A stretch of 64,000 nt of DNA, from positions 391,481 through 455,480 of the forward strand of contig MU004232.1 in NCBI GenBank assembly GCA_010405405.1, read 5' to 3'. The position numbers and the translations under genes were made by a program. The notes under the pieces were generated by a model. The model was not told where the DNA came from and searched no databases. It saw only the letters and a program-made list of their open reading frames with translations. Shown one piece after another: positions 773 through 51,460 of the stretch (the first letter of the stretch is position 1; every line of letters begins with the position of its first letter). The stretch is from Microthyrium microscopicum. Taxonomy: Eukaryota.

Positions 773-2254
773 CTAAGCAGCCAAATCAGGAACTCCCTCC
801 GGCCACCCACCAAACACCAACGCCTTCATTGGCAACCGTCCACTAATCGGACTAATAATCTTCAACCTCGACTTGCTCTCATCCACCTCGGCCACATATA
901 TATACCACAGCACACTCGAGGCCAGTATATTGTCTGTATTGTCTGTGGGATTCGCATGTGTGACTGCGAGCACGATATTTTGGAGCATAAGGGAGGGTGT
1001 TATGCGTTCTAGTTTGGCGGTTGATACTGGTGCTGGTTCGTAGTCGTCTTCGTCGTCGTCTTCGCTGTCATCCGATATCAGGTCTGTGGTGGATGGTTGT
1101 TGATCTTCGTTGATGCGAAATATAGTGATCTCATTGAATCCAACGAATTGTGTAAAGGGGCTTAGTGACATGCCGGGGTGGCCGAAGAAATATTGCCGTA
1201 TTTGGTTTTGGCGAAATTGCTTCATGTAGGCGTCTGTTCGGTCCACGCAGCCGCTGGACTTGTCGAGCTGGAGTACGTGGACTGGTTTCTCTTCAGGTAC
1301 ATTGTCTGGAAATTGTGCTTTTATATCGTTGTAAAGTGCTTCAGGCCCAATAGCAAGGACGATATCAACTAGTCAAATAGTTAGAACAATCATCGCTTTA
1401 AGGTATGGATAAAATATACCGGAGAAAACTGAAGCAACGCGCTTTATTAGTGCATGATCTCCAGCCAAAGACCCAGGAGTATCAATCAGACACCCCGAAG
1501 AACCAGCATCCCTATCCTCATCCAGCCTCGTCCCTACCGCCCAGCCTAACCGTCTAGTAAGCTGTTCATAGAGTCCAAGACTTCCACCGGCTTTCTGGCA
1601 CCCGTAGTGAAAAACCAGTGGCATCTTGACCGGCACCGCACTTGGGCCACTGATCGGACTACTACCCCAACCCTCTTCCATATCAACAACGGTAGCCATT
1701 GTTGTGGCTGTCAAGGCTCCTGGCATACTGAGCAGTCCCTGTGATGGATCTAAATTGACAACCACTGGCTGTCGGCCCATCTTTAGTGAGTATCCGGCAA
1801 GAATCTTGACCAAGCTTGTCTTGCCAGAGTTTTCGGGTCCCACAACCATGACGCGTGGTCCTTGGCCATGTCGTTGTTCCGCTGCAACGCGCAAATCTTC
1901 GAGTGCAAAGTGGATGTTTGCCGCTTGATTCATTGATGTGTCGCCTGTGCCATGCGCAGATTGTGGTGAGCCAGTGACTTCCAAAGCCGCTCCGTCCCAT
2001 GTGAATATAGCAGCTTTGGTTCCCGCAAAAGTGTAAGCTACTTGTGGCGCGAGCTCAGTACCAAATAACTCAGCGCTTCCCGATAAGAGTTTTATGGACA
2101 CGGGCGATGTGAATGACGCCTCAAAGCGATATTCTGTCTCTGGGCCTGAAGAATGTGTGCGGACAGAAAGTTCCACTGGCGACGCATCTTCGCCTTGGCC
2201 AGGATCAAATTCTGACAGACCTGGAGGACCACCTGAAAGTCCCGGGATAGACAT
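773..2254 (-). CDS. CLP1: mRNA cleavage/polyadenylation factor Clp1 (polynucleotide kinase fold), 2 exons
   Basis: Motifs: 'LLSGSAELFGTEL', P-loop 'GPENSGKTS', 'VNLDPSQG', 'IDTPG', and C-terminal 'QIRQYFFG...LSPF...ISPISGRLP'. One intron at about 1417-1370. Confidence 0.95.
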
Positions 2255-33654: not shown

Positions 33655-36558
33655 TCAGAGATCGCGGACGAGTCTGGCACCAGCCCAAACAAAGGGATAG
33701 TTTCTTTGATACCAGTTGACACTATTGAAGTCAGTCTTCACTCGCTCGAGTCCCTCTAGCTTTGCAGGAACTTACAATGACTTGCGGCCTGCGATTCTGG
33801 GATGCGTAGCCCAAGAGCCGCCAAGCACAATATTATGTTTGCCGTCAAAGAAATCGGCTAGAATCAATCAATTAGTGTCTGGACATTGGTTGCTGCGTAT
33901 GGGTAGTAGACTCACCAGTATATCCAGGATAAAGCTTCATAGGCTCAAACCCTTCATGCTTCTCCAGCACAGAGCTAGTCCATTCCCACGCACCGCCCAG
34001 TTCAGACTGGCCTGCCAGCTTATGTTCGCCAGTCACTGGCACAGGATGCCAGGACTTGAGGCCAACATTGGCAGATTGCAAGTCAATGAACAAGGACGAT
34101 GGGTCGAGAGATGGCGCTGCTCCATTGCTGGAGAAGTGGTGCTTGTCACCGTTGAATGGTGGCGTCTCTTCCACACCATCGTTGACAAGGTGTGAGTTGA
34201 CAGCAGGGGTCAAATCTGTCCGGTTTGAGACGTCTTTGTTTTTCATCTCTTCGACAAATTCGTAGATGCTCTTGGCTTCTTCGAGGGAAGGGATGCGGCC
34301 TCCCATCCAGCGAGCGCAGCCGGCAATTTCATCGTATGAGGCCATCACGGGCCAGTCAAGCGCAAACTTCAGTGGAACTTTGCCAAACACGGTTCGAACA
34401 GCTTTGTTGGAAACGAAAGTGGCAATGGATTGTCCATTGGTATGCCCATTGGTGTGTCCATTGGAAGTTACATTGATTGCGGTTGATGACAAGAAGGTCC
34501 AAGAAGCCGGAATCTTGTCACTTCCATGAGCTTCAAGATATTTCGCAAAGTCTCCATTGGTGATGGCCCTCTCCTTAGCTTCAAAGGCGCCGACCTGCGC
34601 AGATCTCGTGGGCTTTTCATTATCCCATCCGAAATATCTCGGTGCTTCCAAGTCCTGGTCGGGGTCATCCAGCCCAAGAGAAATGGTCCTAGCAGGTACC
34701 TTGACCCAGTAATTTCCGACAGCATTTGCCTTGGTCGCGCTCGCCAGAGCTTCGAAGTCCGGTACAACGACACCGACGGGAGGCACAGTTCGCTCGCTTT
34801 GAACTAACATATACAACAGAGTCTCCAGATGCATTGTCTCGTGCTCAAATCCCAGCCAGATGGCTTTACGAAGGGCACCGTTGCTCTTTAGCTCATCAGA
34901 CTTCAAGAGGTCCTTTACCCGCGTGCGCACGCTTTCCTGGTAGGCCAAGATCTGCTCCGCTGGCGGCCAAGTTTCCGGGACTTCGCTGTGATCATGGCAA
35001 AGCTCCGGATTGTCTACATCCGGATCAATTCCACGTTCAAAATGTTTCTGGTAATATTCCAGTTCCTTAGGGTTCGGAGATTTGCCAGTAGCTTTGGTAA
35101 GGTGGATATCCAAGAAAGTGGGAATATGACCCAGATAAAAGATACAAGCGTTGCGCAGCTTAATGGGTTTGGCAGTCAACTCTTCATGCGGAATCATTTT
35201 CTGTGTAATGATATCCCAAGCCGTCCAAAGGCTTTCCCAGTCCTGCAGTGATGGAACTGGGCCGGCGGCATACTCAGCGGGTTGCGACGGGAACATGACT
35301 GTAGGCTTGTATGCCATGTGTAATCCTGAAAGTTGTCAGTTTCGTTTGTCAAGCAGACGTCGATTACCAAATTATTTATTGATCGATAGTTTGGAATCAA
35401 TATCATCACAAGATATGGGAGAGAAGTATTAATCATAACATACCATAAGAGGAATCCTCATTCGCCCACCAGGAACCCTGGACTAAGCCTGCATCTCGGA
35501 ACAGCTGATTGGCCTCTTCCGCAGAGAACTTGTTGCTTTCCTCAATTTGGACCCGCTCGTCCTTGTGGATAGTTACACCGTCTACAACGACGTCTCGAAT
35601 TGGCGAAACGCAGGCTACGTGCCGTCCGCCATGTTCGTCATATCGATATTCGCCGATAACTCTCCAGTCCTCAATGTTGAATTGGTGGGATCCGAGGAGT
35701 TCGTTGGCATGCTCCAGACCGTTTAGGATGAACTTGTGAGTCGTACCTTGATTGTCATTGTAGGCGTGGAAGACTTGGCTTGGATCTTTACAGGCGTCGA
35801 TTCCAAGGAGCAAGCAATCTTGTGGCTGAAGAGTGCTGGCAAAGCTCCTCAGGAAACCGGCAGCTTCAGATTTAGTAAAGTTGCCAATACTTGAACCAAC
35901 ACTTAGAACTGCTTTTGGTTTATCCTTGATTCCTTCGGATTTCAGCCATTCCAGACCGTCGTCGTAGGTTGCATGCAGGCCGTAGCATCGAACGTGTTTG
36001 AATTGTCCAGTCTTGATGGCTCCAAGTGTTCGTTGCAATTCCTCGAGCGAGACATCCAGGGCATAATAATCAACCTTCTTTTCGGCCTTCTCCAGAGCAT
36101 TCAATAGGATCTCAATCTTCCTCAAGTTGCTAAAAAGTGTTAGTTCACGTCATCGTCCTCCGAATATCCAGTGATCAGAGGCCTCACCCTGATCCCAACT
36201 CCAAAATGATGCTGTTGTTTGCAATTCGCTCCGCAATACTGTCCGCATATCTCTCCAAAACTGAAATTTCTTTCGAGGTCAAATAGTACTCCGACAAGTA
36301 GGTGATCTTTTCGAAAAGGCGAAGACCAGATACATTGTATAGCAGCAGTGTTGGTAGTGTCTTGCCATGTCCACCTTCTGGTCGCAAGCCTTGCTTGATG
36401 TCCTCGAGCATGGAATATTCGACTCTTGCTTTTCTGATATCAATGATTGAGACGTCATTTTTTGGTACCGCTGGCTTTTCAACCCCAACGGGAGGCTGAA
36501 TGTCCGACGGATCCCTCACGGGAGCTCCGCGCATCGCGACTGGGCTTTCAACAGCCAT
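33655..36558 (-). CDS. egt1: Ergothioneine biosynthesis protein Egt1 (histidine methyltransferase + DinB_2 + FGE-sulfatase sulfoxide synthase), 5 exons
   Basis: Motifs: 'KTLPTLLLY..GLRLFEKITYL.EYYLT', 'ELGSG', 'LRNACIFYLGHIPTF', Fe-binding 'FEHETMHLETL', 'FGWDNE', 'DFFDGKHN.VLGGSWATHPRIAGR', 'NWYQRNYP'. Confidence 0.95.
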
Positions 36559-37999: not shown

Positions 38000-40900
38000 C
38001 TAGTGTAGCCGTCTCAAGTGATCTACAATATCTCTGACATCAGTAACCGTCACACTCTGTCCTCCACGGTTCAATGCATCGACGCATTGCTGCTGAACTT
38101 CAGGCGGACTATCCAAGAACCGCTCAATCAACTCGCCGTCCACAAACCGGCGAGGTTCCTCCTCCATTCTGACGTCGTTTCTGAAGGCTCGATAGCCTTT
38201 GAAGTCGATATCTCCAAGACTCTTGACACTTTCCGCCAGTATATCTTGGAGATTCATGAGCAGATCTCGCTTGTTGTCGGCGATGAGACCAAATAGATAC
38301 AGTGATCCCTCTCTCTATGACGGGTTAGTCAGTAATTAGTCTGTGGAAAGAGGACGGAAATACGCACAGTTGCGAGCAGCGCCTTTGGAACGACTGGCGA
38401 ATCTGCTGATGTTTCCACATCAATACTCTGCATGCGATTGACAAGTTCTCCTATGCAAAATTCCGAATCGACTTGCAGTCTTCGTAAATCGTCTGCGGTT
38501 GCACCCTCAAGATTCCGTGAGAGAACAAGCAAATTCCCTTCGGCATCGCTCTCTAGCCAGCTATGAGGGCCAACTTGACATACGGCAGTTCCCCAAAGCG
38601 TCTGGTAATGTCGAGCTATTTCAGTCAAAGAGTGTTTGCCAACAGTAGATTTATCCTGAGATTTGTATTGCAGTATCGACACTGACTTCATCAAATCCGC
38701 TACTGCAATCGTGTCACCTGTGATGCACATGCTTATTGGCATAGTGGAGGTTCGATATGTAGCCAGTTTGGTGAGCCCTGGCGTTCGTCCAGAAGAAAAG
38801 TCATAGGAGAATATAGCAACTGTTTTGTTCATCGCTGCCACAATTTTCCCATCGACCATGCCAAGGCAACGGCAGGCGCCCTTGATACTATGTTGGAGAA
38901 TTGGGCGTAGAGTTTGATCTGCGGTGAGCTCGAAGATGATGATTCGACCTCGAAATTCGTCTACGGTGTCGTCCTCTACAAAAGAGGTTCCCACGATGAA
39001 ACGTTCTTCCATTGAGCCATAACCATCATCGAGCTCAGTTCGAAGGACGGACTCAATAAGTTCGTCATTTTTAAGCTCATAGCTGGCGACTTCTTTGAAC
39101 ATTACTTCTTCAACGACCTTGAAACTGCTTCTTGATATTTCAGCACCATCCTGTATACTCCGCGCAATCGTTCCTATTCCGAAGACTTTGAGTGCTCGAG
39201 AGTAGACAAGGCGTCTTGCTGTTTCGCCAATCTGTAGTGGTTGGACATGAGTAGTTCGTTCGTAGTCGATTTGTGCGATTTTAATGTCATCGGATGTTGC
39301 AAAAATAACTGAATTTGGGAATGCTTCAGAGTCAAATGGACAGACGCAGTTGACTTGTTCAGTATCGACGGCTGAGAATGTCAACCGACCCTGCTCTTCG
39401 TAAATCAAGCTAGAATGCTCGCTTGCAACGAAGATGCTCTTCAGCTGTCCATCAGGGTACGTCAGTTCCGTAAGCTCTGCTTGTCTCGTACCTAGAACAG
39501 TTTTCATGGCGAGTTTGAGATTTCCATTTTCACCAATCTCATAAGTAGCCACATGCCCATCAGCCAGAGCAGCAAAAAGGATCGGACTATCGTTAACCTT
39601 GGAAACCGTGGAGATGAGTATGGATCGGGGTAGAGCACGTTCTTCTCCACTTTCGGTCGAGCGTATAGGCTTCCATTCTCCAGTGCTCAATCTTATCACT
39701 CCAATCTCACTCTCCTCCTCGACGCCAGAGTTCCAGAATCCAACAAACAGCATCTCTGAAAGTGAAGGTATTGACGACAGAGCGATGCAGGAGATTTGAT
39801 AATTTGGAGGTGCCAGGTGACGTTGAGGTTTGATGCCGTCCTGGAAGTTGAAAACTTGAAGGACATTGCCACCTAAGCAAATCACAAGTCGCTCATCGTT
39901 CGCAGTTGCCGCTATGATGTCGACCCCGTTGTCTGCGTTCCAAACTACTGGATTTGAGTTAGATACGAGACTTCGTATTATGACACTCTTTTGAGTGACC
40001 TGAAGGAGTTGTAGCTGTGAGCTTTGATGAATATTGCGTGCTAGGAGAGTCTGAGAATCCAGAGCCATGCCAGCGTCCAATTCCTCAACGGCGCCAGATG
40101 AGTCGAATTGTAGTAATCTGCTCTCGTCGGTGAAACTTAATAGAATAGCGTTGACTTTTGGTTGCGATGGATCCAACCGAAGACTGAATATTGCAGTCGT
40201 ATTCTCCAAATCAGGGAGTAGACCAAGCTCTTTGACACCCACTCCACTGCGGACACTTCTAATGCTACCATCTTGCCATGCGCCGCTACCAGTGACAATT
40301 CTGGCTTGTCCAGTAGAAAATTCGTTGGCTGGTCCATCACCTGAGCGATTACCCATATCCATGACGGTAAAATCCAGAATAGGGGACAGACTGGCAATCG
40401 TCTGGATAATCTCAATAGTCCCATCCGTAATCCTGACAACTTGAGAGTCTCCGTGGTGCGAACCAACGAAAAGCAGATCGTCAGAGAGATAAACCAGACA
40501 TGCTGCTTGAGACGTAGTTCCAAGCTCTTCCACCTCCATTTCATCCACCAAGCCTTCGCGGTCGAGATGTAGATTCAGGCTGTAAAGTTTACCAAATTCA
40601 TCTGCCAGAACATATCTAAGATTATCGATTCGTGCCCATGACGTCCAGATTGTGGCATGAGGTAACGCTTCAATGTGATCCTTTGCCGTTGGGCCATCAT
40701 CAAACCAGGAAACCTTTGTTTCCGCGAGAACAATTATGCCGTAAGGACGATTCGGAACCGGGATTAAATGGCTTGCGCCAACATCAAGGTCTGCAGTGTC
40801 TCGCTGATTCTCGGAATCTCGATATTCAACAGCAACATCCGTATCCTTGGCGCGCGATTGATAATGGATCTCTCGAAATCTCATGCGAGCATTGCCCTCG

Positions 40901-41559
40901 TAGTCTTCCCAGAGAAGCGCCACTTCGGGCTTTGCCCCACGACCTCTGGGACGCTGACTGAATGCTGCTGACTTGACGTTGAACTCTGGAATTCTAGACC
41001 AGGCGACTTCGTCAAGCACACTTCTTTTGGTTTGGATGCCCTTTTCGACACCTTTGAGGCCCCATTGAACCAGAGGAATTGTTGTTAGAATGCCTTCATA
41101 AATCTCCAACAGCATAAATTCATTTAATGGATCAACGAGGCTCCGTTCTCCTGATTGTACTTCTCTTGCGGTCCTATCTGCAAGATCCTGAAGTTTGAAG
41201 ACTGTGTCCAGCTGTTGAGTGTTTGAATTCCATGATGCTGTGAAGAAGTGTCCGGTGTCTGTTCCAACGAAGATATGATCAACAAGTGAATCGGCCGGTC
41301 GGAACTTGTTGAGTACGACAATGCGACCGTAGACCAAATGTGAGCCAACAAGGTTTAGTATTGCTCCTGAGCCGCCAATCTGATAGGTCTCTATGCGGTT
41401 GAACTTTCTGATCAAGCACCCAAGTTAGCATAGCCACATACACTCCACAAATAGACGTACGTACGCTACTACTAAAGATTCGGAATCCGGGTCTATTAAG
41501 TTGAGCTTGAGGGCCAACCGGATCCCGCTTGGTCGATGAATTGGAGTAATGTAAGCCAT
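38000..41559 (-). CDS. DDB1: DNA damage-binding protein 1 (CUL4 adaptor), 3 exons
   Basis: Motifs: 'MAYITPIHRPS', 'LFVGSHHGDSQ', 'SPILDFTVMD', 'GSGAWQDGSIRSVRSGVG', 'IAVADLMKSV' and C-terminal 'RFVDGELIERFLD'. Confidence 0.93.
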
Positions 41560-42013
41560 GCTAGGGGCTGGAGGTCATATACCAGCACTGAAGCTGTATC
41601 ATCTGTCTGCAAGAATATCTATCACGGCCTCTCGTAATTCAGAAGGGGTCCCTCTAGAAAATCTTTTGCAACAAAAGAATATCGGAATAGAAGTGGGATG
41701 GTTAACAAAGTGAGGTCTTGTTCAAATCATGATGCACAGTGCAGTTGATGATTAAATGCCCGGACATAAGATTAGATTTCGAGCTTCTTATTTCCGCACT
41801 AGTAACTTTTTGGTGACTCTCGAATTTAAAGCATCGAGTTCTGCACAACTTCTGCACAATTTCCTTCCACCACCAAACCTCATCACAGAAAGCGAAACAG
41901 TTAAGTCAGCAAAAACGCAGATTCAAGCGATCCCGGAAAGTCTTGAAGTCCTAGCGCACATTGATATCTCTGGATGATCATTATCCTCAGCTCATAGCGT
42001 CGGCTGATTCGCC

Positions 42014-43232
42014 ATGTCTCGTGCGTCCATCAAAAGCTCAAATATCAAGGAAAATTACGCTAACATTTTTAGACGAAGCCACCATGGACGGCGATGAGGA
42101 GGACTATGTTGTTGCAGAATATGACGTTCTCATAACACCAGAAACCGCCCAACAAATTTATCTCATGCAATATCCAACTCGGGACCGCAAAGCACCATAT
42201 AACGAAGCCAACAACAGCCAACCTCTGGAAATGCGCATCAAACCCCATGCTGGCTTCATGGAACTCGACATTGGTTTCAATACAGGCGAGCACTTCGACA
42301 AGCGCAAGGGAGTTTTGTGGGGTGAATCCTTGCGGGCGACTGAAAAGCTGGGCGCAAACTCCTTTGGTGTTGCTAGTGGCTTCGGAAAAGGGAACAAGTC
42401 CAACGAATCGATGGTCGCGGATAGTAGCCGTGCGGCTGATGAGGAAAAGCTTCGGGATATGCTGCAAGATTTCGATCATTCGGTTGGTGAAGGCAAAGTG
42501 TTGATGAAGCAAACCCTTGGTGGACAGATCATTCGCCCTCAACCTGGCCGTCCTATGTACATGCTCGGCGCTTTTCGAGGCAGTAAGTATACTACGAATA
42601 CCGGCTTGCCGGAAACCGTTGCTAACGGTCTTTAGCTGAATTACATCTATCCATGGTCACTGGAATCGTTCAGATGCGACCTCAGTTCCACCACATTGAT
42701 GCTAAAGGACAATTGGCCAAAGTCAAGCAAGTCCGAGAGCGAGCAGCAGCAGAAGCGGCCAAAGGATCTGAATCTCGTCTAATCACCCAGCGTGCCCATA
42801 CTGCCGATGATGAAGAACTCAATATCGAGCGTACCGACAAGTTCTTGGAACGTGCAGCTATGGAAAAGTGGTCCAGACTCCAGTTCAGAGACGAAGACGT
42901 AAGTTCTTCCGTTCACATACATATCCGAACCTAATGACGTGCAGTCGGACGAAGCTTTCTCTGCTTATCGAGAATCTCTATTCCTCCAAGACACTCATGG
43001 TGCAAAGAAGCTCGAGTCGCCATGGGATAACGAAGAGTTTCTAGACGCCATCAGCATACCCCGTGGCAAACCAGGAGCTCATATGAAGCGCAAGGCGCCC
43101 ATGACACGAAAACAAATTCTGGTTCTACACCGTGAAGCAGAGGAGGATGCTGCTATCGAAGCAGCGGAAAAGGCTCAGAAAGAGGCAGAAGCTGGGAACC
43201 ACAAGGATACTGAGGCTATGGATATGGACTAG
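42014..43232 (+). CDS. RPC5: RNA polymerase III subunit Rpc5/Rpc37 (Sin_N family), about 4 exons
   Basis: Motifs: 'DYVVAEYDV', 'LMQYP', 'MRIKP..G.MELD', 'QTLGGQ', 'YMLGAF', 'GIVQMRPQFHHID'. Introns at about 42021-42072, 42583-42635 and 42899-42945. The start is ATG 42014 or 42084. Confidence 0.88.
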
Positions 43233-43841
43233 CAGTCGAATAATCCAGCAGCACCGGTGGACCGCATGGTTTCATTACGTCTTTCAACCAAACCAGAGTC
43301 TCAGGACGATATACGCCGCCACTCGACTGACACGCGTACCTTGACACCACAACCTATGGAGTTGCGTACTTCCGCGAAAGCAAATTTTCGAGACCACATA
43401 CGCCGCCCACTCGTCACAGATCCTCATCACTTGATGAACCGGTCTTTGGAGATACGTCTTTCGACCGAACCTGATTCCCAGAATGACATAAGCCGCCAGA
43501 CCATTGATCCTCGTGTCTTGACAATCGATTCTCATGTCCTGACAACAGAGTCTATGGAACTCGATGTCGATGCCACTTTGGATTCATTGATCTCCGAATC
43601 ACCCGAGGATCTACGCTCTACAAAATCTGGCAAACTCACAGACGAAGAAGTTGAAGACGAAGCACTTGTGCCACCGCCTCTTCAGACGCGGAAGAAGAAG
43701 GCGGCGGCAAAGAGTTTGTCCAAAGCTACTGGCAAAAAGGTCAAGGCCACCGCAAAGGCAAGCGAACCAACAGATGATCTAATGCCCGAACCACTTGCTC
43801 TGCCTGCTGGCCGATCATTAAGGAACCGGACTAAGAAATGA
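43233..43841 (+). other. Stop-free in-frame extension (202 codons) directly after the RPC5 TAG; internal repeat and basic NLS-like tail
   Basis: Reads GAC TAG CAG TCG AAT AAT CCA... and stays open to TGA at 43841. A repeat with 177-nt spacing has diverged mostly at third codon positions. Confidence 0.65.
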
Positions 43842-43896
43842 TGCACGAAATTAGCGAATTAGATACCCACTTATACCAGGCATTGGAATGTAGATA

Positions 43897-44372
43897 CAGT
43901 GCTGCAAGAGCTGAGTCCTCCCCCCCCCTAGATTATGAAATGGCGCTTCAGGCCGTGATTGGAGGGCGAGAAGATCTAAAGAGTGCGTTAGTATGCAAAT
44001 TTAGCGGCGTAGCCCCTTAGATCAATCTTACCAACTCCATCCTCTTCCCAAATTATAATATTATCGATCCTAAAGCCTAATCTTTGTCAAATATATTGAT
44101 TTTTAGTGTTTTGATGCATCTTCAGGTCAGTAGTGAGTGTTTATTTAATATCAGAATTTGATTTCTACGTTATTAATATGGCTTCAAAAGCGACCCAAGA
44201 TGTGGTATTTAGGAAGGATGGTTTTCAAGGGGCTGCTAATGGGCCGCGACCGGGCGGCGCCCTACAAATTTGCACTGTAACGCCCATCCTACCCCGAAGA
44301 TCCACCCAATTACGGCATGATCCGCTAATTTACGATTTTAGGGGGGGGGAGGACTCAACTCTTGCAGCACTG
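43897..44372. mobile_element. MITE, Tc1/impala-like, 476 bp, ~35-bp TIRs starting CAGT, TA target-site duplication
   Basis: Left end: TA|cagtgctgcaagagctgagtcctcccccccccta. Right end: tagggggggggaggactcaactcttgcagcactg|TA. There are extra subterminal inverted blocks (tgcaaattt/aaatttgca and agcccctt/aaggggct) and an AT-rich core. Confidence 0.85.
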
Positions 44373-44651
44373 TAGAATGTAATACTGACTATTACAATCA
44401 AGCAGCTCAACTTCCCTTTGCTTGCATGTGACCGAAAAGCTGCACTCTAGCATTCGAGTATATCCCATCATGCGGAGTTGCTTCCGCGACATTCAATGGA
44501 TTTCTGAGGCTCAAAATCCCCCCGCCAACTCCAACATCTCACCACCAAGTCCGCGAATACCCGCTCAACATCAATGAATCATAGCTCTCTCAAACCCCTT
44601 CGACAGCTTCCAAACCACAATATCCAAGTTGCTCGAACAACAAACCATTAG

Positions 44652-45404
44652 ATGCTCCGCACCCTCCTCCGCCCACTCACCATTCCCATCCCAAAAATGG
44701 CCCTCAACCCTCAACCCACCGCCTCAAAATCCACATCCTCAACCACATCCAGCGCACCAACCGTCTCCCTCCCCGGCGCACCGCAAGCCGCCCAATTCTC
44801 CAAAGGTTCCCTCGACCGCTCCGCCCTCGCCTCCGACCCAACAACGCAGTTCACAAGCTGGTTCGCCGAAGCCTCCTCCGTCCCACAACACGAAGCATGC
44901 ACACTAGCCACCGCCGAGCTACCATCCGGCCGCGTATCAGCACGCATGGTATACATGAAATCCCTAGACCACGGATTCGTGGTTTATAGCAACTGGGGCA
45001 CTAGTAGGAAAGCCGCTGACATCGCCTCAAATCCGAATGCCAGCTTAGTATTCTGGTGGCGTGAATTGGAGAGACAAGTGAGGGTGGAGGGACGCATTGA
45101 GAGGGTGAGCACGGCAGAGAGTCAGAAGTATTTCGATACGCGGATAAGAGGGAGTCGGGTCGGTGCGTGGGCGAGTCAGCAGAGTAGCGTGTTGAGCGGA
45201 CGAGAAGAGTTGGAGGGGCAGGTGAAGGATGTAGAGAGGAAGTTTGAGGGTGTGGATGAGATTCCTGTGCCGGAGTTTTGGGGAGGCGCGAGGGTTGTGC
45301 CGGAGAGGGTGGAGTTTTGGCAGGGGAGGGAGAGTCGGTTGCATGATCGGTTTAGTTATGTGAGGGATGGAGAGGGGTGGAGGATTGAGAGACTTAGTCC
45401 ATGA
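44652..45404 (+). CDS. PDX3: Pyridoxamine 5'-phosphate oxidase
   Basis: Motifs: 'DPTTQFTSWF', 'SARMVYMK', 'SRKAADI..NP.ASLVFWW.ELERQVRVEG', 'GAWASQQS', 'EFWQGRESRLHDRF'. Confidence 0.96.
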   Translation: MLRTLLRPLTIPIPKMALNPQPTASKSTSSTTSSAPTVSLPGAPQAAQFSKGSLDRSALASDPTTQFTSWFAEASSVPQHEACTLATAELPSGRVSARMVYMKSLDHGFVVYSNWGTSRKAADIASNPNASLVFWWRELERQVRVEGRIERVSTAESQKYFDTRIRGSRVGAWASQQSSVLSGREELEGQVKDVERKFEGVDEIPVPEFWGGARVVPERVEFWQGRESRLHDRFSYVRDGEGWRIERLSP

Positions 45405-45583: not shown

Positions 45584-48500
45584 CTACACCGCAGTCCCAA
45601 TATCAATTTTCTGAGCATCGCCTTGTGTCGAACCATCACTATCAACTACCTCTTCCACACAATCACACCCAAACATCGCCCTAAATTCCGGTCGGAACAT
45701 GCCCTCCAACAGTTCCAACGCCTTCTTGCTAGCCGCGACCTTTGCATATCCACTACTCTCTCTGACAGCCGAACCAGCAACCTTGTCATGAATCATGACA
45801 CCACTTACAATCTTCGACACGGCAAGCGGATTAAGCTGCGGCAACTCCTGAGCCATGAGCTTGAAATCTCTACAACCCAATTCGATGGCGAGCAGATGAT
45901 GGAGTTTTGTGGTGGGGTGGTTGTTCGCAAAGGTGTCATAAATCTTCATATCGACGAAGAACGGCTGTATGTGGCGGTCGAAGAAATCCCTCACAGGCGT
46001 GAAGTCGAACTTGGCATCGACGAAAAGAGCGCCGATGAAGGATTCTACGATATCCGGAAGACATTTGGGAGGTGCAGTGAGGGTAGTCCAGTAATCGACA
46101 GCGCCGTTCGCAACGCGCTCTGCTTCCTCCGCCTCAATGACGAAATCGCCAATTTGGCCTTGTAGCGCATCGTGGTGGTGGCGTAGATGGCGATGGAAGC
46201 CGATCTTGACGCAGAGGGCTCCGAGGAATTTGTTGGATACCATTGCCATTTTGTGCTCCGTCAGCCATTGGGGATCTTTCATTGGGTAGTTGTAGAAGAG
46301 GTAGGAGACACAGACCATATCTAGCAGTGAATCGCCCAGGAATTCTAGTCGCTGGTAAGATGGGACTTTGTCGTGTGATGCTAGGGATGGGTGGTTGAAG
46401 GCATTGCGGATATGGCGAGGGTGGTTGAACTTGTATGGGTGTTCGAGGTATACTTTCTCGGCTAAATCTGTTTCTGTGTATCTTAATGGGAACGTCATGA
46501 ATTCGGGCTCTTTGTATGCCTCGAAGTAATCGTCCCACTTCATCATTTGATGGTTCTCATTTCGGACTAGAAGAGTGACAGCTTTGACTGCGGCGTCCCA
46601 GTCTGCAGGTGCCCAGGCATCTAGCCGGTTGAATTGCACGAATGCAGCGCCAATTATGGCTTCGCAGACGTCGGCGACTGATTTGTCCCCTAGATGGTGT
46701 TCTCGCGGAGGTTCGACTTTTCCTGCACCTTTACCTACGAGAAGGCGGATGCAGGGAGGATACCAAGTTCGGCGACTAAATTCCTGGGAACGAACGAATC
46801 GATACAGTTTCAGGTCTTTAGCTGCTTCGAACAAGTTGTTATTGCAAATCATCAACATTCGATTGACGTGGCAGAAGAATTCCGTGTCGGAAGGGGTTTG
46901 AGTATGCAGTGAGATTGAAGTTGCCGTCTTCAGGAACGTATCGCCTATAAATTCCAGACGTTCGTAATTGTTGCCCATGCCAGCTCGGAAGTTGATCTTC
47001 TCTTCCTGATGATCGCCACTGTTATCAGAATCCTTGGTCATAGCCTCTAGAGCAAGGTTTGTATCAACTCTGAGTCCGAGCAAATCGAAGGCCTCCAAAG
47101 AGATGAGATACTCTTCGATGCGATGGATAGCAGCGGGAAAGACGTAACCCATTGTAGCAATCTTAGTAGAGATTACAGAGATCTTCAGCGGTTGTGGACA
47201 CACATATACCCGCTGGAGCCCTTGCAATTGCTTGATTTCATCTCTCTGGGGCTTCCCAAGGAGATTGCGGCGAGTTTGTGGCTGCTCGCATTCCAACACT
47301 GGCTGCTTCTTATCCCAGACCTTGGCCCAGAGTTCTCGCTGCTTCTTCCACAAGGAGATGGAATACTCCAGAATGCTGTCCATATATTTAGTTGGAGGCG
47401 CACCTTCTGGAACGGGATCCCCTGAACACTTGGTCGGATCAACTTTGATGGAGAAGAAACGTCGACCACCTTGCCATATGTCGATTATGTACTTGTCAGC
47501 AATAGCTTCATCTGGCGTATCCCGTTGCCAGCCGTACTCGTGCTCGGCTGATCTGGGTTCTGCTTTCTTCGTGGCTATGAGGTCCAAGGTTGCACTATCG
47601 ACTTGATAATCTGGGGCAAAGGTGACTGGAACAAGCCAGTAAGGCATTTTGGCCACATCTTCTTCGTAATCTTTGTTGAAGATGTCTTTCAATAGTACCA
47701 GGGAAAACTTTGTCGCCTTCGACAGAAAGCTTGGTGAACAGGGTATGGCTGTTTGGACACTTTTGCATGCTACGAAAGGAACGTTACCCTGCGTCAGGAA
47801 CAGTGGGAACTTTGGAAAGTTTGGCAGTGGCTGACGAGTAAGAATGCCCAGTGGTTGATGAGGTCGTTCCAAAGAGCCTTCAATGTCAATGACGGTGAGA
47901 TATGCCTCGGTCGGTAAGATGCCGCTCCCTTCTGTCCAAGCAGTGGGCTTCATGAGTGCCTCGTACGTGTTTCCCTTCTTACTTGGGAGAGCAAGCTTGG
48001 CATTTCGCATCATGGGTAGAATCTTCTGATAGCACGATACAAAGTTTTCGTCAATGAGACTTTCTTCTCGCAATTTCTTGCACATCTGGAATGCAGCTGA
48101 TCGTTTAGCCAAGGACTTTCTTTTCTTTGGTTCGCCAAAGCAGCGCTCAATAGGAGAACCTTGAGGTAGAATGACCTCGTAGACGAATTTATCTCCATCT
48201 CGTCGATAGTCATACCTCGGATTCTGGATCACGAAGGTATCGGATTTCGGGAGACTAGCAACGAAATGGGCCAAGACAGCAAGCGCAATGTGGGATGTGA
48301 GAGTTGCTTTGGTAGATGGTTCCATGTGTCTGTCCTCAAAGTCTTTGGGCAGGTCCTCATCGCCATTCGTGACGATACGATCTCCTGGCATATCTCCACA
48401 AAGAGCATGCATTCGGCGCGCGTCTGTTAAGACGCCTTGAACTAGACGTTCTTGCTGTATGTTGCCAGTTTCCATCATATGGTAGAATTTAGAGTTGCGA

Positions 48501-50104
48501 TGTCGAGCGCGGCCCTTGGACTGTACATATCGTATCATTGAATCGTATAGATCGAAACGAATGACGAGATTGCATGCAGGAATGTCTAGACCTTCTTCGG
48601 CCACAGAAGTTGCGAACAGACAGTTCGTTTCACCTTTCCGGAAGCTGAGCAGGGTTTGAACTTGCTTTCGAAATGTTACTGAATCATCTCCTTCTTGCGC
48701 AGAGTTGGAACCAGTTAATGCGGCAACTTTCAGATATTGACCGCCTATCCGACTGAAGATCTCAGTGAGGAGTCGAGTCGCCATTCTGGTTTGAACAAAG
48801 ACAATACACCGGCCTTGAGTGGGCGAGTTGAAGTGATCATGGAGCAAATGATATAGCTCAAGAACCTTTGGGGTCAAGTGTTCTGGTTTGGGCTCGAGGG
48901 TCTCAAATTCGTAGGTTGATATATACTCTGTCGCAGTTTCCAGAAGTGCCAACTGATCGTCCGTGAACTGAACAGCGGCTTTGTCGTTTTGGTTGCGCTT
49001 TTCCAATCGACCTTCAATCTTTTTAGCTGCCGCTTCGGCAAGGAAGAGTGTCCAGGAGAAATCCGAGGGCCATGAGCCCAGTGTTGAGGTCAGTGCCTTG
49101 GTATGGTTGAACAATTTCTTCAGCTCGTGCATTTCACCATATTTCTCAAACATGCTGAGCCAGAGCGGAGTCTCGAAGGGTAGTGGACCGCGATCATAGT
49201 AGCAGATATGCTCTTTGGCTTTGTTTCGATGCTCCTCTGACAAAGTGACTGTAGCAATTCGGGAGTCTAGCAATTGCTCTAATTCCCGCGCAGCGCCTGC
49301 AAGATCATCAACCTTTGCACTTACAGGAGAAGCTGTCATGCCAAAGACTCGAGGTCGTTTCGCTTTTTCTTCGTGAGCATAAAAGTCTCGAATAATTCGT
49401 GCATACACATGTCCTTGCTTGGCGTGATGTGCTTCATCAAATATCAAAAGATTAATTTGCTCAATCGTCAGGTATGAATGTACAAGGCACTGATGGAGAA
49501 CCTCTGCTGTACATACGATGACCATAGCCTTTTTGAGTAGTTTCTCCCAAGTATCTTTCGTCCATAGAGCGGCTCCCATGGAGCCGCAAACTCGCTCAAT
49601 CTTGTGGTCAAGATTGCACTTCAAGACTGAGTGTTGTTGGAAGACCAAAGTTGTTTGATTGACTAAGAAAAAGGCATATCTTCGAGCCTTTCCAGTCGCA
49701 CGGTCCTCAATCTCTTGGTCCAGAACATGTCTCAGGAGAAGCACAGCAATGAGTGTCTTTCCGGCGCCAGTATCCAGGACTGCTATGGTGTTTTCTTTCT
49801 TGGCACGCTCGAAGAGCTCCAGTTGATAGTCTCGTGGGTCCGTGATTTTGACATTGTCCTGTCGGGAGAGGAGGGCTTCTATGGATTGCAAGTCTTCCGT
49901 CTGTCCTTTGACTCTTTCTTTTGAGAGCGTTTCAATCTCGCTTGCGATCCAATCTGAGAAGACTGCTGTTCTGGCAGCGGATTTGGCTGGTGGTTCGGGA
50001 GGAAGCAAGTTGGCATCCAGGTCACTGTCTTCATCGTCACTAGAATCACTGGAGTCAGTTTGATCGAAGACATCTTCATACTCATCATCATCATGGAACT
50101 CCAT
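45584..50104 (-). CDS. dcl1: Dicer-like protein 1 (DExH helicase, dimerisation domain, PAZ-like region, two RNase III domains, dsRBD)
   Basis: Motifs: 'PRDYQLELF', 'DTGAGKT', 'DEAHH', 'ATSVAEEGLDIP', 'NYERLEFIGD', 'SYQRLEFLGD', 'PKCLPDIVES'. The ORF is 1506 aa and uninterrupted. A short upstream exon (about 50270-50197) is possible. Confidence 0.95.
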   Translation of the reverse strand: MEFHDDDEYEDVFDQTDSSDSSDDEDSDLDANLLPPEPPAKSAARTAVFSDWIASEIETLSKERVKGQTEDLQSIEALLSRQDNVKITDPRDYQLELFERAKKENTIAVLDTGAGKTLIAVLLLRHVLDQEIEDRATGKARRYAFFLVNQTTLVFQQHSVLKCNLDHKIERVCGSMGAALWTKDTWEKLLKKAMVIVCTAEVLHQCLVHSYLTIEQINLLIFDEAHHAKQGHVYARIIRDFYAHEEKAKRPRVFGMTASPVSAKVDDLAGAARELEQLLDSRIATVTLSEEHRNKAKEHICYYDRGPLPFETPLWLSMFEKYGEMHELKKLFNHTKALTSTLGSWPSDFSWTLFLAEAAAKKIEGRLEKRNQNDKAAVQFTDDQLALLETATEYISTYEFETLEPKPEHLTPKVLELYHLLHDHFNSPTQGRCIVFVQTRMATRLLTEIFSRIGGQYLKVAALTGSNSAQEGDDSVTFRKQVQTLLSFRKGETNCLFATSVAEEGLDIPACNLVIRFDLYDSMIRYVQSKGRARHRNSKFYHMMETGNIQQERLVQGVLTDARRMHALCGDMPGDRIVTNGDEDLPKDFEDRHMEPSTKATLTSHIALAVLAHFVASLPKSDTFVIQNPRYDYRRDGDKFVYEVILPQGSPIERCFGEPKKRKSLAKRSAAFQMCKKLREESLIDENFVSCYQKILPMMRNAKLALPSKKGNTYEALMKPTAWTEGSGILPTEAYLTVIDIEGSLERPHQPLGILTRQPLPNFPKFPLFLTQGNVPFVACKSVQTAIPCSPSFLSKATKFSLVLLKDIFNKDYEEDVAKMPYWLVPVTFAPDYQVDSATLDLIATKKAEPRSAEHEYGWQRDTPDEAIADKYIIDIWQGGRRFFSIKVDPTKCSGDPVPEGAPPTKYMDSILEYSISLWKKQRELWAKVWDKKQPVLECEQPQTRRNLLGKPQRDEIKQLQGLQRVYVCPQPLKISVISTKIATMGYVFPAAIHRIEEYLISLEAFDLLGLRVDTNLALEAMTKDSDNSGDHQEEKINFRAGMGNNYERLEFIGDTFLKTATSISLHTQTPSDTEFFCHVNRMLMICNNNLFEAAKDLKLYRFVRSQEFSRRTWYPPCIRLLVGKGAGKVEPPREHHLGDKSVADVCEAIIGAAFVQFNRLDAWAPADWDAAVKAVTLLVRNENHQMMKWDDYFEAYKEPEFMTFPLRYTETDLAEKVYLEHPYKFNHPRHIRNAFNHPSLASHDKVPSYQRLEFLGDSLLDMVCVSYLFYNYPMKDPQWLTEHKMAMVSNKFLGALCVKIGFHRHLRHHHDALQGQIGDFVIEAEEAERVANGAVDYWTTLTAPPKCLPDIVESFIGALFVDAKFDFTPVRDFFDRHIQPFFVDMKIYDTFANNHPTTKLHHLLAIELGCRDFKLMAQELPQLNPLAVSKIVSGVMIHDKVAGSAVRESSGYAKVAASKKALELLEGMFRPEFRAMFGCDCVEEVVDSDGSTQGDAQKIDIGTAV

Positions 50105-51460
50105 GCTGTATTTGTTGAATACTGATCGTCAAGAGGAAGTAGTTTTGGAAATGTGGAAGGGTGGAAATAGCAAATATCGCAAATACACGAACGTACCTAT
50201 ACCACCCAACTCCGGAATCTTGCAGCCTACTAGGCTCTGTCTCAGCAGGCATGAGGCTTGTCTTTTCCATATTTGTCTGCCGCCTGTCAAGGGACTCGTG
50301 TAACTCAGCTCCGGCTAACTGCCTCAAGATGTTCCGATGGCTGGGTCTTGGAAGCGTCTGAAGCCGAATTTGGTGTCGACTCAATGAAGCAAGATAATAA
50401 ATGTGAGATTGATTTAATCTTTCAGACAAGAAGTACGTGAATCATGTTCTGCGAGCATATCTTCAGTCAAAAGGGTTTTTCCATTGGGGGACAGTGATCG
50501 TGCGAATGCTGGGCTTCAATTGACTCCAGAAGCGCAAGTCTTAAGCAGGGCGAAGCGACCAGCTTTTATGCTGTCAACTGGGGATGTTTGATCTCCAGGA
50601 TATTAAGCGCTACAGTGAATGCCCTCGGCAAGACTCAATGAGACAAAAATTGGAGTTGAGAAGGTTGAGACGCGCTGAGGTCAAACGAGAAACGCGATAT
50701 CAGCGCGCAGCCACGTGGATGGCCGATTGCTATCCCCAGAAGTGGAAGTTGCAATCCGGTCGTGGCCATCACGACGCATCACCCAAGGTCTGAGATTTTG
50801 AGCACGACTTGCACCTGATATCATGAGCTATTGGATTCCTGACCAACTGGTGCGCATTTCAGGAAGCAATTGAGGACAGAAGTTGCAAGAAGTGAGGAGT
50901 CAAGAATTGGATTCTCCTTTTCGGAAGTTGATGAGGATCTGCCAGCCTTATTTTTGTGGAGATTGGAGCTCGGACTGTTGGAAACGATTTCCTCAATTGT
51001 TTTCCAAAGTGAACCCAAACACCATCACTCTCCGCAATATATTTCACGCGTTTGGTCGTTTTGGCATTGGCGGTCATTGACCTGCTGGCTCAGTCTTTCC
51101 ATAACGATGTGCTCTGATCTACACTTATCGATATTTGATAGACGAGATTTTACTCAAGTCTGACTAATGGCCACTGGAACGCAATCTTGAAAACAATGCT
51201 GTTTCGACAGCTATGAAGCTACGAAAGACAATGTTAATCCCGAGAATCCAACAACGCTGCCCGCAATAGAAGGTGATCAACGAGATGGACAAGCTGAAAA
51301 CAAAACACAAGGGCTAAGACAACTGATCGACGATGCTGCATCCTTGGTATAAAGGCGAATACTGACCTCCTAGAACTGATTGTCGACGCCAAAGCATCGC
51401 TCAAATTCAATCATTCATTCAAACTACAGTCATTCATTTTCCCAGTCGTCTCTACTCATA

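Follow-up and report, generated by a model that had tools for sequence, protein, structure and literature searches.

The window analysed here is a stretch of 64,000 nt of DNA from Microthyrium microscopicum (assembly GCA_010405405.1, contig MU004232.1, positions 391,481 to 455,480 of the forward strand). This report deals with its gene for RPC5, a subunit of RNA polymerase III, and with an open reading frame (ORF) that directly follows it. The RPC5 gene lies on the + strand and has four exons. Its product matches Pfam family PF04801 on both main exons, with 54.8 and 33.2 bits at a curated cut-off of 23.1, and is identical to the public 355-aa protein P0002, which starts with MSHEAT. Thus the gene had been correctly named as RPC5 in an earlier note made from the letters of the window alone. 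Directly after ...ATG GAC the frame is closed by TAG. As the note had also pointed out, the frame then stays open for 202 codons, up to a TGA. We refer to these 202 codons as the tail; the coordinates of all features are collected in Table 1.

The RPC5 transcript and its stop codon

The RPC5 gene model was confirmed with RNA, including the very short first coding stretch and the 52-nt intron directly after the second codon. A contig from run X5 (record 9, 2084 nt) starts at 41899, has three GT..AG introns removed and shows no differences from the window. The three stretches that it skips (introns 1 to 3 in Table 1) are kept in DNA run X4, which identifies X5 as spliced RNA. From 42945 to 44132 the contig is unspliced and continuous and covers the last RPC5 exon and the entire tail. 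The tail is therefore on the same spliced RNA contig as RPC5. This RNA evidence comes from one run in the form of assembled contigs, which hold no strand, transcript ends, levels or rare variants.

The stop codon is real. A DNA contig (X4 record 1) spans 41700-43633, carries the TAG and shows no differences from the window. An assembly or sequencing error, for which the earlier note had proposed a check, is ruled out since every letter of the DNA contig and of the RNA contig is the same as in the window. Nor is the TAG spliced out: the RNA contig retains all of the sequence in this region, and no 5' splice site of the form GTRNGT, which all three confirmed introns share, was found in the last exon and the tail (42945-43841). 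Hence no ordinary intron can take out the TAG.

Comparison with homologues indicates that the stop is also at its ancestral position. When the last exon, joined to the tail by W, was searched against 1.8 billion representative proteins, 24 matches were obtained, all confined to residues 1-95. All of the 23 aligned homologous proteins end 0-40 residues from the RPC5 stop of the window, and several of them share a similar motif at their ends, for example P0019 with ...AMDVDT compared with ...AMDMD here. In the RPC5 loci from metagenomes, the frame stops at the same place in 27 of 28 cases; the remaining one runs off its contig. In the window, RPC5 (41899-43232, +) forms a divergent gene pair with DDB1 (38332-41424, -). 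This pair is retained in 11 of the 28 related loci, which are thus true orthologous regions. Because homologues and related loci end RPC5 at the same place, the stop is ancestral and the long tail is not a general feature of RPC5. That RPC5 was once longer and was recently shortened by a nonsense mutation was rejected as unlikely, since the homologues end at the same motif.

In two RPC5 relatives, P0012 (381 aa) and the locus L008:1797-2132, a C-terminal addition of ~40 aa, rich in S/T/P and with a basic cluster at its end, is hard-wired into the protein. BLASTP of the tail against these two relatives gave E values of 5 or worse; the likeness is in composition only. A basic end on RPC5 is thus not unprecedented.

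Coding-like character of the tail

Whereas the tail is open in the RPC5 frame, the other five frames across the same stretch contain 5-9 stops each. At the local base composition, the probability of 202 open codons is 1.35e-4, in line with the value of about 1e-4 given in the earlier note. This is small for one gene but not when a very large number of genes is scanned, and the openness alone therefore proves nothing.

Codon usage and periodicity provided evidence that is separate from the openness. The codon-usage score was trained on 16 long ORFs, all from this window. In the RPC5 frame the tail reached 0.117 bits/codon, the best of the six frames. Real coding pieces average 0.098 bits/codon, and the tail exceeds 59% of the 68 pieces scored. 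None of 228 noncoding pieces of 606 nt and none of 378 noncoding pieces of 100 codons reached the score of the tail; it was reached by one of 340 wrong-frame pieces and by one of 2000 Markov simulations conditioned on an open frame. The 3-base periodicity of the tail (chi-square 26.8) was reached in 3 of 2000 simulations and in none of 38 noncoding pieces. Most of this signal comes from the distal half (codons 110-202), with a codon score of 0.21 (0/2000 simulations) and a periodicity fraction of 0.003.

The tail is partly built from repeats that keep the reading frame. The duplicated block that the earlier note had seen at 43276 and 43453, 59 codons apart, corresponds to repeat family D1, i. 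e. 71 nt at 43276-43346 and 43453-43523 that are 75% identical and 177 nt apart. A second family, D2, has spacings of 87 and 21 nt, and a 21-nt tandem repeat was also detected. Every one of these spacings (177, 87 and 21 nt) is a multiple of three. The three degenerate units listed in Table 1 are not equally clear: the middle one is weaker, as it rests on reading of the peptide and on the short D2 family. Between units a and c, the nonsynonymous substitution rate (dN) is 0.24 and the synonymous rate (dS) is 0.68. The resulting dN/dS of 0.35 was reached by 40 of 1543 random-mutation simulations. Differences between the repeat copies fall on codon positions 1, 2 and 3 in 7, 2 and 10 cases, respectively. 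For a 14-codon stretch, our recount gave the same numbers as the note: 9 substitutions, of which 6 are at third positions, and 4 codon changes that are synonymous.

Codon usage, periodicity, the in-phase repeats and their dN/dS thus agree, and we conclude that the tail is still read in the RPC5 frame or was so until very recently; pure chance is an unlikely explanation. That the tail evolves like coding sequence, as the earlier note had put it, was therefore borne out, with a signal that is strong distally and weak proximally. The C-terminus is rich in lysine and arginine and resembles a nuclear localisation signal (NLS), again as described before. In the AlphaFold2 single-sequence fold (mean pLDDT 48.4) the tail is predicted as mostly disordered, with two short helices; this fold is too weak to use. 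The tail is single-copy in DNA run X4.

Table 1. Features of the RPC5 gene, the tail and the adjoining repeat element (positions in the window)
Feature	Position	Strand	Evidence and remarks
RPC5 exon 1: 5' untranslated region, ATG 42014 and first codons (MS..)	41899..42020	+	X5 contig joins 42020 to 42073
Intron 1, 52 nt, GTGCGT...CTAAC...TAG	42021..42072	+	GT..AG joint in X5, depth 523; not spliced in X4
RPC5 exon 2, N-terminal RPC5 domain	42073..42582	+	PF04801 E 1.2e-14 on 42084-42581; RNA contig
Intron 2, 53 nt	42583..42635	+	GT..AG joint in X5 contig
RPC5 exon 3	42636..42898	+	PF04801 E 4.6e-8; RNA contig
Intron 3, 46 nt	42899..42944	+	GT..AG joint in X5 contig
Last RPC5 coding stretch, 95 aa, ends ...TEAMDMD	42945..43229	+	24 library proteins match; aligns with homologue C-termini
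RPC5 stop TAG, then CAG TCG	43230..43232	+	both X4 record 1 (DNA) and X5 record 9 (RNA) identical to the window
In-frame open tail, 202 codons (protein P0001)	43233..43838	+	closed by TGA 43839-43841; coding-like; no homologue; mean pLDDT 48
First in-frame ATG of the tail, putative start of a 191-aa ORF	43266..43268	+	context gaccgcATGg, no purine at -3
Proximal repeat region, three degenerate tandem units of 29/30/36 codons	43275..43559	+	units 43275-43361, 43362-43451, 43452-43559
Distal half: acidic block, then Lys-rich block and RSLRNRTKK	43560..43838	+	strongest coding signal of the tail
MITE-like element, 480 bp, 47-nt terminal inverted repeats (87% complementary)	43895..44374	.	54 nt past the TGA of the tail

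The tail is followed by an element that resembles a miniature inverted-repeat transposable element (MITE). Its summed depth in X4 is ~10,000-44,000, compared with ~1,018 in the flanking single-copy DNA (roughly 10-40x). Variant copies of the element are also present in the RNA run, and G>A and C>T account for most of the differences between copies. The RNA contig across RPC5 and the tail ends inside the element, at 44132. An X5 contig joins 44132 to 44191 within the element and thereby skips 58 nt with GT..AG ends (depth 98); this joint may stem from a spliced read-on transcript or be the product of another copy of the element. DNA runs X6 and X7, which are labelled as another organism, contain a few low-depth contigs identical to 43522-43981.

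Further downstream lie the genes for a pyridoxamine-phosphate oxidase (PNPO; 44652-45404, +) and for a Dicer-like protein with a helicase, a Dicer dimerisation and two RNase III domains (45587-50128, -). In a check of downstream synteny, neither PNPO nor Dicer was found in the related loci. An Egt1-like protein (FGE-sulfatase/DinB and histidine methyltransferase) is encoded at 33875-36149 on the - strand. A second apparent readthrough site of the window, TGA-CTAG at 1373-1375 (-) with 199 open codons behind it, was ruled out because it lies inside an ordinary intron (GTATAT...CTAAC...TAG).

Possible readthrough of the stop and its alternatives

The interpretation of these data that we tentatively favour is readthrough of a leaky UAG-CAG at low level, by which a minority of RPC5 molecules would gain a disordered tail specific to the lineage. 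We regard this as a possible rather than a probable account. Termination at the ancestral UAG would remain the rule and yield the normal 355-aa subunit, and a minority of ribosomes would pass the UAG and produce an isoform of 558 aa. The likeliest route would be that a near-cognate tRNA decodes, at low level, the UAG in its leaky UAG-CAG context. The 202 extra residues would form a disordered and lineage-specific extension, in which three degenerate repeats are followed by an acidic block and a basic end that resembles an NLS. The tail would then be translated via the stop and not from a start of its own, and the longer isoform may be functional.

Several observations are consistent with translation via the stop. 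The tail shares the frame of RPC5, and the 11 codons that separate the RPC5 stop from ATG 43266 are free of stops. None of the four in-frame ATGs that were checked (43266, 43356, 43434 and 43554) has a purine at -3; there is a C at 43266 and C, T and T at the others. At the two ATGs of RPC5, this position is a G and an A. The leaky context UAG-CAR named by the earlier note is indeed present as UAG CAG. UAG-CAR-YYA is described as a leaky readthrough context in a passage of the literature (PMC3542737), and UAG-CAG-UCG has five of its six downstream positions in common with it. The RNA continues for 900 nt or more beyond the TAG and for 291 nt or more beyond the TGA of the tail. The usual length of a fungal 3' untranslated region (UTR) is nearer to 291 nt than to 900 nt, and measured against this the extent of the RNA fits an mRNA with its coding end at 43841 better than one with its coding end at 43232.

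Other results weigh against the readthrough interpretation. The public annotation places the C-terminus of RPC5 at the TAG (P0002, 355 aa), and a contig across two genes is not proof of a single transcript. The second codon after the stop is UCG, which has both pyrimidines but ends in G and not in the A of YYA, and no stable structure was found 3' of the stop (z 0.16). TAG is used as the RPC5 stop in only 5 of 27 related loci. The proximal half of the tail (codons 1-109) has a weak codon score of 0.037 (fraction 0.078) and a periodicity fraction of 0.18. We know of no fungal readthrough extensions of 200 residues. Bypass of stop codons has been argued to be generally non-adaptive (PMC13684035), which calls for caution in assuming a function of the longer isoform.

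Conservation of the tail gives no support either. No homologue of the tail was found at near or longer lengths, among the 1.8 billion representatives or in word-indexed searches, and no Pfam family matched it. The ESM Atlas gave no usable match for the tail, with a recognition score of 970 that is uninformative either way, and a search of 41500-44700 against Rfam gave nothing up to E = 1. The earlier note had made its reading depend on a tail frame that is kept in relatives. This was not what we found: in the 27 distant relatives the frame stays open for 0-79 codons past the RPC5 stop, with a median of 6, and tblastn of the tail against the 28 related loci gave a best E of 0.8. By these comparisons the tail is not conserved at the evolutionary distances that could be tested, which are large, the next DDB1 protein being 57% identical and the nearest named one 46%.

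The lack of conservation would also be expected if the tail were untranslated today, either as a 3' UTR that happens to lack stops in this frame or as a relic that was once coding and is no longer expressed. We consider this improbable. An open stretch with a probability of 1.35e-4 is an expected event in a scan of very many genes, no homologue was found, the tail is not conserved in distant relatives and it was not called by annotators. By codon usage, the proximal half cannot be distinguished from noncoding DNA, and the predicted fold has low confidence (pLDDT 48). On the other hand, codon score, periodicity, in-phase repeats and dN/dS, which are all separate from the openness, point in the same direction. 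A relic should gather stops and frameshifts, but the 606 nt contain none. Origin of a relic by a recent nonsense mutation is unlikely, as the relatives end at the same motif.

The coding statistics are accounted for equally well if the tail is a separate orphan gene. In this case a protein of 191 aa would start at ATG 43266, either from an own overlapping transcript or as a downstream cistron, and the match with the RPC5 frame would be coincidental. The earlier note was right that this ATG is only 33 nt past the stop, and the strongest coding signal is distant from the RPC5 stop. RPC5 of every relative ends at the same point as here, and the contig that spans both genes does not prove that they share one transcript. 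However, a separate ORF would lie in frame without an intervening stop in about 1 in 5 cases (estimated as 1/3 x 0.957^11), and the purine at -3 is missing from all four in-frame ATGs checked. Moreover, a promoter would be needed inside the RPC5 coding exon, and polyadenylation of RPC5 would have to take place inside the ORF. Among the hexamers searched, neither AATAAA nor ATTAAA occurs from the TAG to 44400, and only AATAAT (43239) and AATATA (44090) were found. This is a weak argument because polyadenylation signals in fungi are degenerate. No standalone homologue of 111-354 aa was found in the collection, and no gene call for the ORF was among the matches. We therefore think a separate gene unlikely.

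The route proposed by the earlier note was adenosine-to-inosine (A-to-I) editing in the sexual stage, by which UAG would become UIG and be read as Trp, so that the extended RPC5 would be made in fruiting bodies only. Stop-loss editing is of a known kind and, according to the passages available from two studies, affects 323-403 genes in Fusarium graminearum (PMC4817773; PMC13123824). The minimum-energy fold has a small GACU/AGUC hairpin with a 4-bp stem and a 3-nt loop that is opened by the A of the UAG. This fold is only modestly better than those of shuffled sequences (z -2.1; 6 of 200 shuffles fold as well). Purines are present at +3 and +4. The note had further held that the site fits the editing motif. 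Its U at -1 and its purine at +1 are indeed there, but U at -1 and G at +1 are true of every UAG and thus do not discriminate, and the minor preferences given in the same excerpt (-2 U, -3 G, +2 G; PMC4817773) are absent here.

The host argues against editing. It is a Dothideomycete (Microthyriales), and the neighbouring DDB1 protein is 100% identical to one that a source names as Microthyrium microscopicum. In the relevant passage of one review, the only fungi listed with A-to-I mRNA editing are Sordariomycetes and Pyronema confluens; for Aspergillus nidulans and Botrytis cinerea the review states that none was identified (PMC11156358). None is reported for Dothideomycetes in those literature passages that name the class. 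The edited extensions quoted in the excerpt of PMC13123824 are short (11-27 aa). The RNA contig reads A at 43231; this is weak evidence, as the stage of the RNA is unknown and contigs drop rare variants. Editing at this stop is therefore very unlikely.

Least likely of all, though conceivable, is a minor alternative splice from GTGAAG at 43132 to the CAG ending at 43548, which would link RPC5 in frame to the distal tail and skip the stop: the two sites are compatible in phase, the coding signal is concentrated distal to 43485 and a branch-like CTGAC stands at 43539 just upstream of the CAG, but the joint was not seen in the RNA contigs, GTGAAG is without the G at +5 found in all three confirmed introns, the intron would measure 417 nt compared with 46-53 nt for the confirmed ones, and the in-phase repeats and their dN/dS would be left unexplained.

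Comparison with known systems

The arrangement behind RPC5 resembles type I readthrough of the tobamovirus type (UAG-CAR-YYA) in that UAG is followed by CAG, two pyrimidines and an in-frame, coding-like ORF on the same RNA. It differs in the sixth position, which is G instead of A, in the lack of any conservation found and in the length of the candidate extension, which is very long with 202 aa. Also, the host here is a filamentous fungus. To our knowledge, the only readthrough extensions in filamentous fungi are short ones for peroxisomal targeting at UGA-CUA.

With the edited UAG stops of Sordariomycetes (FgDBF2, FgMOB1 and FgCDC14), the locus shares a UAG that lies in a small hairpin in the minimum-energy fold and an in-frame extension predicted as disordered, as far as these genes are described in the excerpt of PMC13123824. 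The differences lie in the host class, which is not known to edit, in the size of the extension (202 aa compared with 11-27 aa) and in the RNA contig, which shows no A>G.

As a member of its own family, RPC5 (Rpc37) of RNA polymerase III, the protein is clear, and its stop is where the fungal homologues end. In contrast, a comparable tail, fused or read through, was found in none of the 23 homologous proteins and in none of the 27 loci. Animal RPC5 has a long C-terminal extension.

Finally, the second ORF directly behind the gene on what appears to be one RNA is reminiscent of the downstream ORFs and polycistronic transcripts of fungi. Unlike in those, the second ORF here continues the frame of the first without a further stop, and the context of its ATGs is poor. 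Polycistronic transcripts have been reported mainly from basidiomycetes.

The significance of the locus depends on which of the interpretations holds. If the tail is a separate orphan gene, it would represent a compact gene overlap that was missed by annotation. If it is translated through the stop, a recoded extension of unusual length would be present on a core transcription enzyme, and this in a class of fungi from which such recoding has not been described. A more specific possibility, which we consider very improbable, is that this Dothideomycete edits the RPC5 UAG or reads through it in a programmed manner at a particular life stage, to give a 558-aa isoform with a young tail that is built from repeats and ends in an NLS. 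Were this true, stop-loss recoding in fungi would extend beyond Sordariomycetes and Pezizomycetes, and RPC5 would be the first case of recoding in a subunit of a nuclear RNA polymerase. Readthrough of the leaky stop, if it takes place, would mean that a new protein segment made of in-frame tandem repeats can grow behind such a stop.

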